Assembly: GCF_003018255.1 (NCBI RefSeq)
Contig: NZ_CP027440.1
Source: Escherichia coli
Lineage (GTDB): Bacteria > Pseudomonadota > Gammaproteobacteria > Enterobacterales > Enterobacteriaceae
Direction: 5' to 3' (one strand)
DNA length: 64,000 bases
Below the pieces are notes generated by a model that did not search any database, was not told the DNA's origin, and saw only the letters and a program-made list of their open reading frames with translations. Shown one piece after another: positions 9,672-52,195 of this stretch (the stretch's first letter is position 1; every line of letters begins with the position of its first letter). Both the position numbers and the translations under genes were made by a program.

Positions 9672-9754
9672 TGCCGGATGCGGCGTAAACGCTTTATCCG
9701 GCCTACATTCGTGCTCCCGTAGGTCTGATAAGACGCGTCAGCGTCGCATCAGGC
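9672..9754. repeat. REP pair (BIME) in the caiB-caiA intergenic region
   Basis: tgccggatgcggcgtaaacgctttatccggcctac and taggtctgataagacgcgtcagcgtcgcatcaggc in inverted orientation. Confidence 0.75.
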
Positions 9755-25280: not shown

Positions 25281-27635
25281 TCACAAAGTGTTTTGATACG
25301 GCAGAATGTTCGAACGCAGCATCTCTTGCGTACCCAGACCGTAGTTGGAGCTCAGGCCGCGAAGTTCGATGTTAAAGCCGATTGCGTTGTCATATACCGC
25401 ATGTTGTTTATCGTTATCCCAACCGTTCAGCTTCCGCTCGTAACCGACGCGAATTGCATAGCAGCAGGAGCTGTATTGCACACCTAACATAGAGTCGGCT
25501 TGCTTGTTCGCATTGGTGTCGTAGTAGTAGGCCCCAACAATTGACCAACGATCGGCAATTGGCCAGCTGGCGACGGCACCTACCTGCGAAATACCATTCT
25601 TATATTGCTCAGCAGTGGAATAGTACTTAGGCAGCGTAGCCTGAATATATTCCGGGCTGGCGTAACGGTAATTCAGCTGTACCAGACGGTCTTCATCCCG
25701 ACGGTATTCAATGCTGGAGTTACTGGTCGCTACGTTATCCAGACGTGTATCGTACTGAATTCCGCCACGCAATCCCCAACGCTCTGAGATACGCCAGTAA
25801 GTATCGCCTGCCCACACCAGTGAGCCCGTTTTGTCGTCATTCTCCCATGTTATGTTGTCATCGCCAGTGCGAGACTCCGTGAAATAGTAGATTTGACCAA
25901 CGGAAATATTAAAACGTTCAACGGCAGCATCATCATATATGCGAGATGTGACACCGGTCGTCACCTGGTTAGCGGAGGCAATACGGTCAAGACCGCCGTA
26001 AGTCCGGTCCCGGAACAGGCCAGAGTAGTCAGATTGCAGCAGAGACGAGTCGTAGTTATAGATGTCGCTCTGATCGCGATACGGCACGTATAAATACTGC
26101 GCGCGCGGTTCCAGCGTTTGGGTATAACCCGGCGCCAGCATTTCCATATCGCGTTCAAAGACCATTTTGCCGTCAACTTTGAATTGCGGCATTACGCGGT
26201 TAACGGATTCGTCCAGCTTGGTTGTGTTTCTGGAGTTATACCAGTCAAGATTAGTTTGCTGATAATGGGTTGCCAGCAACTTCGCTTCGGTATTGATGCT
26301 GCCCCAGTTATTAGAGAGCGGCAAATTGATGGTCGGTTCCAGGTGAACACGGGTTGCTTCAGGCATGTCGTCTCTGGTGTTAACAAAGTGCACTGCCTGG
26401 CCGTAAATGCGTGTATCAAACGGACCAACATCATTCTGGTAGTAGTTAACGTCTAACTGCGGCTCTGCCGAGTAGCTACTGGTGTTCTGCTCGCTGAAGA
26501 CCTGGAACTGCTTGGTTGAAACGGTGGCATTGAAGTTTTGCACCGCATAGCCAACGCTGAATTTTTGCGTTGCGTAGCCGTCAGTACTGGAACCGTACTT
26601 GTTATCAAAATCATTGAAGTAGCTAGGATCGCTGACCTTGGTGTAGTCGACGTTGAAACGCCACACCTGATCCATGACCCCGGAGTGGTTCCAGTAGAAT
26701 AACCAACGACGTGAACTGTCATCGTTCGGGTGTTCATCTTCATAGACTTTATCTGAAGGCAGATAGTCCAGTTCCATCAAGCCAGCGCCCGCCTGGGAGA
26801 GGTAGCGGAATTCGTTCTCCCACATGATATTGCCACGACGATGCATATAATGCGGCGTGATGGTGGCATCCATATTTGGCGCGATGTTCCAGTAATATGG
26901 CAGGTAGAACTCAAAGTAGTTGGTGGTGGTGTACTTGGCGTTCGGGATCAAGAAACCAGAGCGACGTTTGTCACCCACCGGCAACTGCAAATAGGGGCTA
27001 TAAAAGATCGGTACCGGACCCACCTTAAAGCGGGCGTTCCAGATCTCCGCAACTTGTTCTTCGCGGTCATGAATAATTTCGCTGCCTACCACGCTCCAGG
27101 TGTCAGAACCCGGCAGACAGGAGGTAAAGCTACCGTTATCCAGAATGGTATAGCGGTTTTCGCCACGTTGTTTCATCAGGTCCGCTTTACCGCGACCCTG
27201 GCGACCCACCATCTGGTAATCACCCTCCCAGACGTTGGTATCTTTGGTGTTCAGATTCGCCCAGCCTTTCGGCCCTTTGAGGATCACCTGGTTATCGTCG
27301 TAATGGACATTACCGAGCGCATCAACGGTACGTACCGGCTCTGGTTGTCCTGGCGCCTCTTTTTGATGGAGCTGCACTTCGTCGGCCTGCAGACGGCTGT
27401 TACCCTGCATGATATCCACGCTGCCAGTAAACACGGCGTCATCCGGGTAGTCCCCTTTCGCGTGGTCAGCATTGATAGTCACGGGTAAGTCATTGGTATC
27501 GCCCTGTACCAGAGGACGGTCATAGCTTGGCACGCCCAACATGCACTGTGAGGCGAGGTCGGCTGCCAGTCCCTGTTGACTATAAAGGGCGGTGGCAATC
27601 ATGGTGGCCAGGAGAGTGGGGATACGTTTTTTCAT
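25281..27635 (-). CDS. lptD: LPS-assembly outer-membrane protein
   Basis: 784-aa [27 protein letters not shown]...; large beta-barrel OMP. Confidence 0.95.
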
Positions 27636-27889
27636 ACGTTGATTTTATTGTTCCATCATCGGTAACGTTGCGCGTGACAAACGGTCAGAGACTAACGTAC
27701 TCGTCATCTCTACGCTAGTGTTAATCCTGTCCGAATAGCGTCAGTGGTGTTAGGCACGGCATTGAATGACAGGTATGATAATGCAAATTATAGGCGATGT
27801 CCCACAATTGACCGCAGCCGGAAAACGGTAAAAGCACCTTTATATTGTGGGAGATAGCCCTGATATCCGTGTGTCGATTTGGGGAATAT

Positions 27890-28705
27890 ATGCAGTATTG
27901 GGGAAAAATCATTGGCGTGGCCGTGGCCTTACTGATGGGCGGCGGCTTTTGGGGCGTAGTGTTAGGCCTGTTAATTGGCCATATGTTTGATAAAGCCCGT
28001 AGCCGTAAAATGGCGTGGTTCGCCAACCAGCGTGAGCGTCAGGCGCTGTTTTTTGCCACCACTTTTGAAGTGATGGGGCATTTAACCAAATCCAAAGGTC
28101 GCGTCACGGAGGCTGATATTCATATCGCCAGCCAGTTGATGGACCGAATGAACCTTCATGGCGCTTCCCGTACTGCGGCGCAAAACGCGTTCCGGGTGGG
28201 AAAATCAGACAATTACCCGCTGCGCGAAAAGATGCGCCAGTTTCGCAGTGTCTGCTTTGGTCGTTTTGACTTAATTCGTATGTTTCTGGAGATCCAGATT
28301 CAGGCGGCGTTTGCTGATGGTTCACTGCACCCGAATGAACGGGCTGTGCTGTATGTCATTGCTGAAGAATTAGGGATCTCCCGCGCCCAGTTTGACCAGT
28401 TTTTGCGCATGATGCAGGGCGGTGCACAGTTTGGCGGCGGTTATCAGCAGCAATCTGGCGGTGGTAACTGGCAGCAAGCGCAGCGTGGCCCAACGCTGGA
28501 AGATGCCTGTAATGTGCTGGGCGTGAAGCCGACGGATGATGCGACCACCATCAAACGTGCCTACCGTAAGCTGATGAGTGAACACCATCCCGATAAGCTG
28601 GTGGCGAAAGGTTTGCCGCCTGAGATGATGGAGATGGCGAAGCAAAAAGCGCAGGAAATTCAGCAGGCCTATGAATTGATTAAGCTGCAGAAAGGGTTTA
28701 AATAA
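27890..28705 (+). CDS. djlA: DnaJ-like membrane co-chaperone
   Basis: ORF 27845..28705; DjlA from [22 protein letters not shown] with C-terminal J domain (HHPDK). Confidence 0.93.
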
Positions 28706-28713
28706 GTTTCAAC

Positions 28714-28802
28714 GTGTAGGCCTGATAAGACGCGGCCCGCGTCGCATCAGGCAATCGGCGCAAAATTGCCGGATGCGGCGTGAACGCCTTCTCCGGCCTA
28801 CC
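28714..28802. repeat. pair of inverted REP elements filling the djlA-rluA intergenic region
   Basis: gtgtaggcctgataagacgcggcccgcgtcgcatcaggc and tgccggatgcggcgtgaacgccttctccggcctacc. Confidence 0.75.
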
Positions 28803-28822
28803 GAACTTCGCCAGCGTGACTA

Positions 28823-29482
28823 TTAAAAATCCGCTGGTGCTTTAAACGTCATACTATTGCCATACGCCGGATGGGTAATCGTCAGCATCTCTGCATGTAG
28901 CAACAAACGTGGTGCCATTGCTCTCGCTTCTGGTGATGCATAAAAACGATCGCCGAGAATCGGATGACCCAGCGCCAGCATATGCACACGCAGCTGATGC
29001 GAACGCCCGGTAATCGGTTTTAACACCACTCTTGCCGTGTTATCCGCCGCATATTCCACCACTTCATACTCCGTCTGCGCAGGTTTACCTGTTTCGTAAC
29101 AGACTTTCTGTTTCGGGCGGTTTGGCCAGTCGCAAATCAGCGGCAGATCCACCAGACCTTCCGCAGGGGATGGATGCCCCCAGACGCGGGCCACATACTG
29201 TTTTTTAGGCTCGCGCTCGCGGAACTGGCGTTTTAACTCCCGCTCCGCGGCTTTGGTCAGCGCCACTACAATCACGCCGCTGGTAGCCATATCCAGACGA
29301 TGCACCGATTCTGCCTGCGGATAATCACGCTGAATGCGCGTCATCACGCTGTCTTTGTGCTCTTCCAGACGACCCGGCACAGACAACAAACCGCTCGGCT
29401 TGTTGACCACCATAATATGGTCATCCTGATACAGGACAACCAGCCAGGGTTCCTGCGGCGGATTGTAGTTTTCCATCCCCAT
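28823..29482 (-). CDS. rluA: 23S rRNA / tRNA pseudouridine synthase A
   Basis: 219-aa ORF with RluA-family motif HRLDMATSG. Confidence 0.95.
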   Translation of the reverse strand: MGMENYNPPQEPWLVVLYQDDHIMVVNKPSGLLSVPGRLEEHKDSVMTRIQRDYPQAESVHRLDMATSGVIVVALTKAAERELKRQFREREPKKQYVARVWGHPSPAEGLVDLPLICDWPNRPKQKVCYETGKPAQTEYEVVEYAADNTARVVLKPITGRSHQLRVHMLALGHPILGDRFYASPEARAMAPRLLLHAEMLTITHPAYGNSMTFKAPADF

Positions 29483-29493
29483 CTTCGGCTCCG

Positions 29494-32400
29494 TTACTGA
29501 TGCGTCACAACGATCAAACGCAGGGCATCCAGACGCCAGCCTGCCTGATCCAGGCTTTCCATTACCTGCTGACGGTTGCTCTCAATGGCGGTCAGTTCGT
29601 CGTCACGAATGTTCGGGTTAACTGCACGCAGCGCTTCCAGACGAGACAGCTCGGCAGACAGTTTTTCGTCGGCTTCGTTACGTGCGGCATCAATCAATGC
29701 ACGGGCAGATTTCTCGATCTGCGCTTCCCCCAGCTGAAGGATAGCGTGAACATCCTGCTGCACGGCGTTAACCAGCTTGCTGCCGGTGTGACGGTTAACC
29801 GCGTTAAGCTGGCGGTTAAAGGTTTCAAACTCTACCTGCGCCGCCAGGTTGTTGCCGTTTTTATCCAGCAGCATACGTACCGGCGTCGGTGGCAGGAAGC
29901 GGTTGAGCTGCAACTGCTTCGGAGCCTGGGCTTCAACCACATAAATCAGTTCCACCAACAGCGTACCTACCGGCAACGCTTTGTTTTTCAACAGTGAAAT
30001 CGTGCTGCTACCGGTATCGCCAGAAAGGATCAGATCCAGACCGTTGCGGATCAGCGGATGCTCCCAGGTAATAAACTGTGCATCTTCACGCGCCAGCGCC
30101 ACTTCACGGTCGAAGGTGATGGTGATGCCATCTTCCGACAGGCCAGGGAAGTCCGGCACCAGCATATGATCGGACGGCGTCAGCACGATCATGTTGTCGC
30201 CGCGATCGTCCTGATTGATACCGATAATATCGAACAGGTTCATGGCGAAGGCGATCAGGTTGGTATCGTCATCCTGCTCTTCAATGCTTTCTGCCAGTGC
30301 CTGGGCTTTTTCGCCACCGTTGGAATGGATTTCCAGCAGGCGGTCACGACCTTGTTCCAGCTGTGCTTTCAGCGCTTCATGTTGCTCGCGGCAGTTTTTG
30401 ATCAGATCGTCAAAGCCTTCGGTTTGATCCGGTGAAGCCAGATAGTTAATCAGATCGTTGTATACACTATCGTAAATAGTGCGTCCGGTCGGGCAGGTGT
30501 GCTCGAATGCATCCAGACCTTCGTGATACCAGCGCACCAGCACCGACTGAGCAGTTTTTTCCAGATAAGGCACATGGATCTGAATATCGTGCGCCTGACC
30601 GATACGATCCAGACGACCAATACGCTGCTCCAGCAGATCCGGGTTGAATGGCAGGTCAAACATCACCATGTGGCTGGCGAACTGGAAGTTACGTCCTTCA
30701 GAACCGATTTCCGAGCACAGCAGTACCTGCGCACCGGTGTCTTCTTCAGCAAACCAGGCGGCAGCGCGGTCACGTTCGATAATCGACATGCCTTCGTGGA
30801 ACACAGCAGCGCGGATACCTTCACGTTCGCGCAGTACTTGCTCCAGTTGCAGCGCAGTGGCAGCTTTGGCGCAGATCACCAGCACTTTCTGAGAGCGATG
30901 GCTGGTCAGGTAGCCCATCAGCCATTCAACGCGCGGATCGAAGTTCCACCAGGTGGCGTTATCGCCTTCAAATTCCTGATAAATACGCTCCGGGTAGAGC
31001 ATATCGCGAGCGCGATCTTCCGCACTTTTACGTGCGCCCATAATGCCGGAGACTTTAATAGCGGTCTGATACTGCGTCGGCAGTGGCAGCTTAATAGTAT
31101 GCAGCTCGCGTTTCGGGAAGCCTTTCACACCGTTACGCGTGTTACGGAACAGCACGCGGCTGGTGCCGTGGCGATCCATCAGCATCGAAACCAGTTCCTG
31201 ACGGGCGCTCTGGGCATCTTCGCTGTCGCTGTTTGCTGCTTGCAACAGCGGCTCGATATCCTGCTCGCCGATCATCTCACCGAGCATGTTCAGTTCATCA
31301 TTGCTCAGTTTGTTACCTGCCAGCAGCATGGCAACGGCGTCCGCAACCGGACGATAATTTTTCTGCTCTTCAACGAATTGCGCAAAATCGTGGAAACGGT
31401 TCGGGTCCAGCAGACGCAGACGGGCGAAGTGGCTTTCCATCCCCAGCTGTTCCGGGGTTGCGGTCAGCAGCAGAACGCCCGGCACGTGCTCTGCCAGTTG
31501 TTCAATGGCCTGATATTCGCGGCTCGGCGCATCTTCGCTCCACACCAGGTGATGGGCTTCATCGACCACCAGCAGATCCCATTCGGCTTCACAGAGATGT
31601 TCCAGACGCTGTTTGCTACGACGAGCAAAATCCAGCGAGCAAATCACCAGCTGTTCGGTATCGAACGGGTTGTAAGCATCGTGCTGAGCTTCGGCATAAC
31701 GCTCATCATCAAACAGAGCAAAGCGCAGGTTGAAACGGCGCAGCATTTCTACCAGCCACTGATGCTGTAAGGTTTCCGGGACGATAATCAGCACACGTTC
31801 AGCAGCGCCAGAGAGCAGTTGCTGATGCAGGATCATCCCGGCTTCAATGGTTTTCCCTAAACCCACTTCGTCAGCCAGCAGGACGCGCGGCGCGTGGCGG
31901 CGGCCAACATCATGAGCGATGTTGAGCTGGTGCGGGATCAGGCTGGTACGCTGACCGCGCAGGCCGCTGTACGGCATACGGAACTGTTCGCTGGAATACT
32001 TACGCGCGCGATAACGCAGCGCAAAGCGGTCCATACGGTCAATCTGCCCGGCAAACAGACGGTCCTGCGGTTTGCTGAACACCAGTTTGCTATCAAGGAA
32101 AACTTCACGCAGGGCTACGCCGGACTCTTCAGTATCCAGGCGAGTACCGATATAGGTCAGCAAGCCATTTTCTTCTTTTACTTCTTCGACTTGCATCTGC
32201 CAGCCGTCATGGCTGGTAATAGTATCACCAGGGTTGAACATCACGCGGGTCACGGGGGAATCACTGCGTGCGTACAGACGGTTTTCACCAGTAGATGGGA
32301 AAAGTAAAGTGACAGTTCGCGCATCCACCGCGACAACGGTTCCAAGTCCCAATTCGCTTTCTGTATCGCTGATCCAGCGTTGACCAAGTGTAAAAGGCAT
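29494..32400 (-). CDS. rapA: RNA polymerase-associated SWI2/SNF2 ATPase
   Basis: 968-aa ORF with helicase motifs ([13 protein letters not shown]). Confidence 0.96.
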
Positions 32401-35698: not shown

Positions 35699-35862
35699 TG
35701 CCGGATGCGCTTTGCTTATCCGGCCTACAAAATCGCAGCGTGTAGGCCTGATAAGACGCGTCAGCGTCGCATCAGGCGGTGAATGCCGGATGCGCTTTGC
35801 TTATCCGGCCTACAAAATCACAGCGTGTAGGCCTGATAAGACGCGTCAGCGTCGCATCAGGC
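35699..35862. repeat. two tandem BIME units (85-bp period), each a REP plus inverted REP
   Basis: Unit tgccggatgcgctttgcttatccggcctacaaaatc(g/a)cagcgtgtaggcctgataagacgcgtcagcgtcgcatcaggc occurs at about 35699 and 35784. Confidence 0.85.
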
Positions 35863-41184: not shown

Positions 41185-41272
<88 letters not shown>

Positions 41273-44530: not shown

Positions 44531-44565
44531 TTTGCACCTCAAAAAAGAGTGGCAAAGGACTTGAG

Positions 44566-44658
44566 AAGGAGCCTCAAATCCCTTCGCCGGCGTTATCCGG
44601 ATCAGGTTCGACGGGTATTTTCTCAGCGCACGCGTCTGCGTGGCACCCCGTTGAGAAC
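44566..44658 (-). ncRNA. sroA: TPP riboswitch (THI element) in the thiBPQ leader; region of the SroA sRNA
   Basis: Minus strand reads ...ggggtgccacgcagacgcgtgcgctgagaaaatacccgtcgaacctgatccggataacgccggcgaagggatttgagg..., carrying the conserved CUGAGA and ACCUGAUC.GGAUAA.GCC.GCG.AGGGA thi-box motifs. Confidence 0.85.
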
Positions 44659-44693
44659 GGCGTTAGTGTAGTGATTTTGTTATCAACCAGCAA

Positions 44694-46416: not shown

Positions 46417-46646
46417 GATGAAGCAAGGAGGTGCCTCATGCGTCAGTTTTATCAGCACTATTTTACCGCGACAGCGAAGTTGTGCTGGTTGCGTTGGTTA
46501 AGCGTCCCACAACGATTAACCATGCTTGAAGAACTGATGCAATGGGAGGGGAGTCATTCTGACTACTGATTTGCGGACATCATGTGTGACTGAGTATTGG
46601 TGTTAATCGCCACGCCAGCAGTGATTATCTGCTGGCTTTTTTCTTT
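46417..46646 (+). ncRNA. sgrS: dual-function small RNA SgrS (glucose-phosphate stress)
   Basis: Begins gatgaagcaagg...; contains the sgrT ORF, the conserved ptsG-pairing region (gtgtgactgagtattggtg) and a terminal hairpin gccagcag-tgattat-ctgctggc plus T-run. Confidence 0.85.
46438..46569 (+). CDS. sgrT: 43-aa peptide encoded within SgrS
   Basis: C-terminal 43 aa of ORF 46270..46569, MRQFYQHYFTATAKLCWLRWLSVPQRLTMLEELMQWEGSHSDY, preceded by aggag. Confidence 0.85.
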   Translation: MRQFYQHYFTATAKLCWLRWLSVPQRLTMLEELMQWEGSHSDY

Positions 46647-51358: not shown

Positions 51359-51404
51359 GGTTTGGGTCCTTGTCTCTTTTTGAGCGCCTCGCTTCGGGCA
51401 TAAA

Positions 51405-51433
51405 AAAACCCGCGCAATGGCGCGGGTTTTTTG
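51405..51433 (-). terminator. leu attenuator terminator hairpin (cccgcgc-loop-gcgcggg flanked by T runs)
   Basis: GC-rich stem-loop followed by a U-run on the minus strand, between leuL and leuA. Confidence 0.8.
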
Positions 51434-51450
51434 TTTGACTGAGTGCTGAC

Positions 51451-51537
51451 TTAATTCTGAATGCCGCTCACCAGTCTACCGCGCAAAGAAGATGCGTTTA
51501 GTAGTAGTAGACCGATAAAGCGAACGATGTGAGTCAT
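51451..51537 (-). CDS. leuL: leu operon leader peptide (four consecutive Leu codons)
   Basis: Last 28 codons of minus ORF 51451..51642: [28 protein letters not shown]. Confidence 0.85.
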
Positions 51538-52195
51538 TAAATCAGCTCCAGATGAATGCGATATGCTTTTAGAGTTACTGGATACCAAAACGGATGTCAA
51601 CCCTGATGCAACAAAAACGTCCAGCCAGCGTGAGTTCTGCATCCGTCAAATTAGCTAATTGTGCTGCGGTGGTTAAAACAAGCGATATTAATTTCTGCTT
51701 AACCACCGCCGCTTTTCATCGGTTGACATATTTCAGAATAAATTTTTGCATCTAATCGACGAGGGAAAGGGGGATAAAATGCACGCGTTACAAAACCTAT
51801 CCTGATGATTTGTATTGAATTATATGTATTGCGAATTTTTTGATATTCATTTGGTGAATATTATTGATCAATTAATGTTAAGAATTAAAACATTAAACAT
51901 ATAAATTAATTATTAAAAAAGCACATTTAATCCATTTTGTGGATGATTGAGTATTCGTGGTAGTTATGATTAGATTGTTTTCGCAACAAAAACATTATGG
52001 ATTATTATGCTGTGGTAAATGACGCTTTCCACGGCAATGGATTCTGTTTTTATCAGAACCCGTATCTTTATGTTTTCCTAATTTTACTCATTTTCCTTTT
52101 TCTTATTTTATATGCATGATAAATCATATTCTCGAGGATTATTTCTCTGCATTCCAATAAGGGAAAGGGAGTTAAGTGTGACAGTGGAGTTAAGT
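51538..52195. promoter_or_regulatory. AT-rich leuL-leuO intergenic region (divergent promoters)
   Basis: About 660 bp with long A/T tracts (e.g. ttaatgttaagaattaaaacattaaacatataaattaattattaaaaaag); this locus is a known H-NS-silenced region. Confidence 0.6.

Follow-up and report, generated by a model that had tools for sequence, protein, structure and literature searches.

Introduction

REPs of E. coli are imperfect palindromes that form hairpins and carry a GTAG foot, which reads CTAC on the inverse copy (PMC3333891). They have been described as stabilizers of mRNA 3' ends, as transcription terminators or attenuators, and as sites for gyrase, Pol I and IHF (PMC3333891). In BIME-2 (Bachellier et al., via PMC3333891), z2 and y REPs lie in inverse orientation, joined by a short linker, and the elements are described as tandem copies flanked by s, l or r motifs. 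naRNA4 takes its definition from a single repeat of REP325, where units of two REPs are clustered (PMC4550694). A 2026 preprint attributed a dual role to REP325, as a partly Rho-dependent terminator and as a stabilizer, reported that about 30% of E. coli convergent gene pairs hold REPs and show higher expression, and stressed that the effects of REPs depend on context (bioRxiv 10.64898/2026.03.23.713779). REPs also receive mobile elements. The natural target sequence of IS621, which moves by a bridge-RNA recombinase, is given in PMC11208160, and IS1397 is specific for the palindromic units of BIMEs according to the works cited in PMC3333891 (refs 10-11).

Here we describe a pair of REPs between the convergent genes djlA and rluA in a 64-kb stretch of E. 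coli DNA, hereafter called the window. The pair resembles BIME-2 in its z2 and y REPs in inverse orientation, its short linker, its GTAG/CTAC feet, its extragenic position at gene 3' ends, and the variation of REP number at djlA-rluA among strains; it differs from BIME-2, described as tandem copies, in that a single unit is present. It also shares with REP325 its form, a hairpin of two REPs, and its place in a 3' untranslated region, and it matches the naRNA4 covariance model. However, REP325 is a six-repeat cluster inside the yjdMN operon, between tandem genes, whereas the djlA-rluA pair is one unit between convergent genes. The islet that carries yabP-yabQ in K-12 and espY1 in O157:H7 occupies the same chromosomal position between the same flanking genes. 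Unlike the REP pair, it is a low-GC, acquired segment with a transposase remnant; the window lacks it, and no sequence is common to it and the spacer found there. In other strains, IS621 (PMC11208160) and IS1397 (PMC3333891) are inserted in this same z2 REP, whereas the window copy carries the IS621 target ATCAGGCCTAC unoccupied.

Results

Structure of the djlA-rluA spacer

A first-pass annotation, made from the sequence alone, had named the two genes djlA and rluA, and both names proved correct. In the ORF list, the gene for the co-chaperone DjlA extends over 27890-28705 on the + strand and ends with the stop codon TAA at 28703-28705, and the gene for the pseudouridine synthase RluA extends over 28823-29482 on the - strand, with its stop codon at 28823-28825 (TTA on the + strand). 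The region 27000-30500 had 100% identity with strain JNE23-011 and 98-99% with other E. coli, and lptD, djlA, rluA and rapA are annotated there in RefSeq. The spacer between the two stop codons covers 28706-28822 and has 117 nt with 61% GC. Two 21-codon ORFs that overlap the spacer both run into the flanking genes and were not taken as genes.

Read from the djlA stop codon, the spacer begins with 10 nt of unique sequence (28706-28715) that lead to the GTAG of a z2-type REP. This REP (REP-a), GTAGGCCTGATAAGACGCGGCCCGCGTCGCATCAGGCA, has 38 nt (28716-28753); its consensus sense lies on the - strand, and its GTAG is found on the + strand at 28716-28719. A 13-nt linker, ATCGGCGCAAAAT (28754-28766), which is conserved among Escherichia species, joins it to a y-type REP (REP-b), TGCCGGATGCGGCGTGAACGCCTTCTCCGGCCTAC, of 35 nt (28767-28801), which lies on the + strand as an iREP and has its CTAC at 28798-28801. 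Another 21 nt of unique sequence (28802-28822) separate the y REP from the rluA stop codon. The annotation had reported two inverted REP units between the convergent genes, in agreement with the inverse orientation of REP-a and REP-b. It had also described the spacer as 118 bp of REP sequence; the REP pair is indeed present, but the length is 117 nt and 31 of these (10 + 21) are non-repeat flanks. Without the linker, the two REPs add up to 73 nt of the 117; with it, the BIME has 86 nt.

Identification of the REP pair

The palindrome of REP-a has arms at 28720-28735 and 28737-28752 that are 88% complementary, and that of REP-b has arms at 28768-28781 and 28784-28797 that are 79% complementary; the two blocks are also complementary to one another. 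Typing was based on the z2, y and z1 reference sequences quoted in PMC11208160. REP-a, read on the - strand, aligned to the z2 consensus with 35 matches, 2 mismatches and 1 gap, and REP-b agreed with the y consensus at 33 of 35 positions, whereas the remaining REP types gave far poorer scores for both. A search of the 64-kb window with the pattern GATGCG, 6-24 nt, TCMGGCCTAC revealed 8 sites, against 0.00 expected from shuffled sequences.

Both units are thus repeated in the window, lie extragenically between two stop codons, belong to a consensus type, have a GTAG/CTAC foot, and form a hairpin palindrome within the 20-40 nt given for REPs (30-40 nt in E. coli). Their combination, z2 and y in inverse orientation around a short linker, has the composition of BIME-2, and by the definitions in PMC3333891 the djlA-rluA pair is one BIME-2-like unit. 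The tandem copies of BIME-2 were not seen at djlA-rluA, where the window has a single unit.

The Rfam model RF02564 (naRNA4) matched the - strand at 28719-28798, spanning the BIME as an RNA model, with 77.3 bits (gathering score, 59.5; E = 4e-14). On the + strand of the BIME the match reached 47.7 bits, which is under the gathering score. The naRNA4 label is a model match to a BIME-type two-REP unit and gives no firm indication of function.

Several other sites in the window were recorded in the same searches. Four REPs in alternating orientation form a tandem BIME cluster at 35704-35858; within it, the naRNA4 model matched 35745-35810 with 59.6 bits, just over the gathering score of 59.5. Single REPs were present at 9677-9706 and 41190-41222. 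Rfam matches above the gathering score at 42-94, 44561-44660, 46417-46643 and 51402-51551 corresponded to the ES003 sRNA, a TPP riboswitch, SgrS and the leucine operon leader, respectively, which are expected for this region of the E. coli chromosome.

The K-12 junction and its relation to espY1

In MG1655, the djlA-rluA spacer is 1507 bp long and contains yabP and yabQ along with an N-terminal transposase fragment of the IS4/Tn5 family that is frameshifted (RefSeq annotation). The net difference from the window spacer is 1390 bp, close to the 1.4 kb with yabP/yabQ that the annotation had ascribed to K-12. That K-12 might itself lack yabP/yabQ, a case the annotation had raised against its own claim, was checked and does not hold, since MG1655 has both. 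The other such case, a yabP/yabQ homologue hidden at 28705-28823, was searched for by blastn and tblastn, and none was detected there; with the islet and EspY1 as queries, neither islet DNA nor EspY1-like coding sequence was matched anywhere in the 64-kb window.

The K-12 islet has 44% GC, compared with 53% for the window. No REP motif was found in the K-12 spacer, and it showed no similarity to the 117 nt, with which it shared only 7-8-mers at chance level. On the left, homology breaks inside the djlA stop codon (TTTAAAT-AA in the window, TTTAAAT-GA in K-12); on the right, homology with K-12 restarts precisely with the TTA that forms the rluA stop codon. By this alignment, the BIME is replaced outright in K-12, and the two states are alternative fillings of the entire spacer, not a REP-flanked insertion. 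The annotation's view of the difference as a REP-bounded indel was consequently abandoned, because the K-12 spacer is free of REPs and its breakpoints lie at the djlA and rluA stop codons.

At the same position, O157:H7 and 042 carry an intact gene annotated as the T3SS effector EspY1, and in strain S1-ESP-03-A the annotation of the equivalent gene names a pentapeptide repeat-containing protein. YabP and residues 1-192 of EspY1 have 87% identity; EspY1 is ECs0061 in strain Sakai (PMC4269881). Searches of Pfam and NCBIfam with EspY1, YabP and YabQ gave no family match, and the effector identity of EspY1 is drawn from the RefSeq annotation and PMC4269881, not from a profile match. On this homology, yabP/yabQ of K-12 is a copy of espY1, a T3SS effector gene, that is split and frameshifted. 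For what the annotation termed the yabP/yabQ pseudogenes, frameshifted espY1 (ECs0061) is the better name, the gene being intact in O157:H7 and 042. Six 15-nt tandem repeats were observed in espY1/yabP (L001 2765-2875), and their number varies among strains.

Both ends of the islet are identical in K-12, O157:H7, 042 and S1-ESP-03-A. Identical ends in four diverse strains point to an origin of the islet in a single event. Among these four strains, divergence was 2-4% in the non-coding parts of the islet and 5-9% in espY1, compared with 1-2% in djlA/rluA, which indicates that the islet is old. The djlA stop codon is TGA in three of the four islet alleles. A hairpin-plus-T-run site resembling a terminator is located in the islet, 50-70 nt beyond the rluA stop (L001 3343-3364).

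A repeat search revealed no terminal inverted repeats spanning both ends that would tie the islet to the IS4/Tn5 remnant, and no target-site duplication was visible at the islet. A CTGTA pentamer common to both ends, noticed by eye, was judged to be due to chance. The first 58 nt of the K-12 islet (L001 1907-1964) recur with 91% identity beside the yjhR pseudogene (L087 3001-3058) in many E. coli genomes, and in both places this repeat lies at the boundary between unrelated sequences. It was considered as an account of the insertion and set aside, because the similarity stops there and the insertion is not explained.

Comparison with related species

One genome per species was scanned with DjlA, and djlA and rluA were located and EspY1 was looked for in each of the resulting 80 loci; the set is without E. 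fergusonii and without genomes labelled E. marmotae or E. ruysiae. None of the 80 loci gave an EspY1 match. Wherever rluA was downstream of djlA, the spacer was short, with the exception of two Pluralibacter loci. The REP pair was found in E. whittamii (116 nt) and Escherichia sp. MOD1-EC7003 (117 nt), three REPs in the divergent E. coli SCPM-O-B-8794 (149 nt), and four REPs in E. albertii (169 nt). Alignment of the Escherichia spacers with the window is base for base and extends through the REPs and the linker. REPs were also present in Salmonella arizonae (75 nt) and diarizonae (58 nt) and in most of the Citrobacter spacers, which range from 53 to 193 nt and among which C. werkmanii differs; the REP order in Salmonella and Citrobacter is different from that of the window pair. 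Because the short junction is the only state in the outgroups examined and the Escherichia spacers align base for base, the comparison indicates that the REP junction is ancestral for Escherichia, that the islet is a gain within E. coli, and that the K-12 state is derived.

Other fillings of the spacer were observed outside Escherichia. Enterobacter and relatives have about 30-50 nt (30-32 nt in Enterobacter) with a single hairpin between an A-run and a T-run. In the loci of this group (L029, L032 and others), the G+C-rich hairpin in a spacer of about 30 nt resembles a two-way intrinsic terminator, at the place where Escherichia, Salmonella and most Citrobacter have REPs. The spacers of C. werkmanii (L012) and C. 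amalonaticus (L016) hold an element of about 125 nt, which we take to be ERIC/IRU-like, in place of or beside the REPs.

Distribution among E. coli strains

The short, REP-only junction was detected in 3179 of 5426 complete E. coli genomes, with a 317-nt query across the window junction covered to at least 80% in one piece. The islet junction, counted where at least 80% of the K-12 spacer was covered, was present in 2080 genomes, and about 170 had neither. The collection is skewed to clinical and laboratory strains, and these proportions are not population frequencies. The annotation had called the yabP/yabQ segment missing from the window strain, which implies a loss; the short junction is the state of 3179 genomes against 2080 with the islet and the only state in the outgroups, so that K-12 is the derived form. 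Three genomes with neither junction were sampled: one had IS621 in a REP junction, and two had the islet with IS1 or IS1414. In these two, EC529 (IS1, L096) and MINF_8D (IS1414, L097), the insertion lies between the transposase remnant and rluA.

Among reference strains, CFT073 (phylogroup B2) has a REP-only spacer of 117 nt identical to the window. SMS-3-5 (F) has a REP-only spacer of 117 nt, and IAI1 (B1), HS (A) and REL606 (A) have REP-only spacers of 116 nt. IAI39 (F) has the REP junction with IS1397, and K-12 (A), O157:H7 (E) and 042 (D) have the islet. Both states are thus present within phylogroup A. This patchy distribution of the islet is best explained, we infer, by exchange of alleles through homologous recombination in the flanks.

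Variation at the REP pair

The statement of the annotation that REP-bounded sites vary between strains was confirmed as far as the REPs themselves are concerned, in REP copy number, insertion of IS621 and IS1397, and a deletion, all at djlA-rluA. Two, three or four REPs were counted at this junction in other strains and species; the 149-nt junction with three REPs is that of the type strain ATCC 11775 and of several hundred further genomes. The exact IS621 target in the z2 REP of the window lies at 28716-28726, and further exact targets were found in the window at 35742-35752, 35827-35837 and 41212-41222. In strains Eco_70239 (L006 1820-3100) and E20 (L095), IS621 is inserted at GTAG^GCCTGAT in the z2 REP. 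In IAI39, IS1397 lies in the loop of the z2 REP with GGC duplicated (L089 10980-12420), and the junction is otherwise that of the window; the position agrees with the published specificity of IS1397 for BIME palindromic units. In strain 23556, a microhomology deletion extends from one copy of the octamer GGCGTGAA, inside djlA, to a second copy in the y REP (L005 600-660). It removes the djlA 3' end, where the J-domain region of the C terminus is encoded, together with most of the BIME, and djlA is annotated as a pseudogene there in RefSeq.

Predicted RNA structure of the spacer

The spacer RNA was predicted to fold with -51.2 kcal/mol on the + strand (z = -3.6 against shuffled sequences) and with -51.3 kcal/mol on the - strand (z = -3.0). 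On either strand, the predicted structure is a long hairpin formed by both REPs. A simple scan of both strands over 28400-29100 revealed no stem-plus-T-run terminator; stems were present without a T-run. No promoter-like site was found within or near the spacer.

Discussion

The 117-nt spacer is very probably a single BIME-2-like unit at the 3' ends of convergent genes, in the ancestral and commonest layout of this junction. The opposite history, in which an ancestor of the window strain carried the islet and yabP/yabQ (espY1) was later deleted, is very unlikely. Such a loss would gain some plausibility from the age of the islet, whose non-coding parts differ by 2-4% between strains, and from its presence in phylogroups A, D and E, which exposes many lineages to it. 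However, a deletion could not recreate the BIME. The window spacer is identical to that of CFT073, shows base-for-base collinearity with the E. whittamii and Escherichia sp. MOD1-EC7003 spacers, and has no remnant of the islet; since a BIME identical to that of CFT073 cannot be rebuilt by deletion, simple deletion of the islet is excluded for the window strain. The djlA stop codon is also TAA, as in the aligned REP-only junctions of E. coli and E. albertii, and not the TGA of three of the four islet alleles. Only homologous recombination with a REP-only donor could bring the short junction back, by replacing the allele, and the sequence would still be the ancestral allele. An exchange of the two layouts by REP-mediated excision or insertion, through RAYT or recombination between BIMEs, hardly deserves belief. 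The number of REPs does vary here (2, 3 or 4), a type of change attributed to TnpA-REP (PMC3333891), but neither end of the islet alleles has a REP or half-REP, the breakpoints fall at two stop codons and not at REP or CT cleavage sites, and the IS4/Tn5-family transposase remnant in the islet suggests a different vehicle.

The match to RF02564, which exceeds the gathering score, could also be taken as the sign of a gene dedicated to a small RNA of the naRNA4 family, which would bind HU and condense the nucleoid. Most REPs are transcribed, and naRNA4 of REP325 condenses DNA with HU (PMC4550694). Nevertheless, we regard this as extremely unlikely. The type locus of the Rfam model, REP325, is itself a cluster of two-REP repeats (PMC4550694), the second match in the window (35745-35810) also falls within a y/z2 REP cluster, and the spacer and its surroundings have no promoter-like site. 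Furthermore, the 2026 preprint, from the same group, reported no measurable nucleoid compaction by REP325/naRNA4 and reassigned REP325 to local regulation in the 3'UTR (10.64898/2026.03.23.713779).

For the BIME-2-like unit, the lack of a stem-plus-T-run terminator in the spacer, together with the published roles of REPs, suggests a function at both 3' ends. Transcription from either side would let the REP pair fold into a stable hairpin. By analogy with described REPs, this hairpin may stop 3' exonucleases and, in part by way of Rho, attenuate read-through, so that the BIME may serve both djlA and the rapA-rluA transcript as a 3'-end element that works in two directions. An effect on translation may be confined to one side. 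According to Liang et al. 2015, as cited in PMC12306157, ribosomes stall and translation is reduced where a REP lies less than 16 nt past a stop codon. The z2 REP begins 10 nt past the djlA stop, inside this limit, so that, by the same analogy, synthesis of DjlA may fall; the y REP is 21 nt from the rluA stop, and no such effect is expected on rluA. As DNA, the pair would in addition be a target of REP-specific mobile elements.

The BIME and the espY1 islet might further be alleles of an ancient polymorphism of single origin that recombination has shuffled among phylogroups and that differ in function, a reading we consider rather unlikely. On this reading, the BIME allele alone has a REP 10 nt past the djlA stop and could give less DjlA and a two-way 3'-end structure, and under the islet allele djlA could have a long 3' region of a different kind and rluA could end at a classical terminator. 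If it were true, the dosage of the DjlA co-chaperone would differ systematically between strains.

All components of the locus are already described, namely REPs and BIMEs, espY1/yabPQ, and the targeting of REPs by IS621 and IS1397. The junction is real but ordinary and matters little beyond correct annotation. The correction it brings is that K-12, not the window strain, is the odd one out. The REP-only junction is the normal layout of Escherichia, and K-12 yabP/yabQ is a decayed espY1 that was brought on a small acquired islet that replaced the REP pair. The locus is also a small example of how one REP pair gathers variation, through copy number, IS621, IS1397, microhomology deletion and replacement. 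Since strains with and without the BIME exist even inside phylogroup A, it could serve as a natural test of the effects of REPs on convergent genes.
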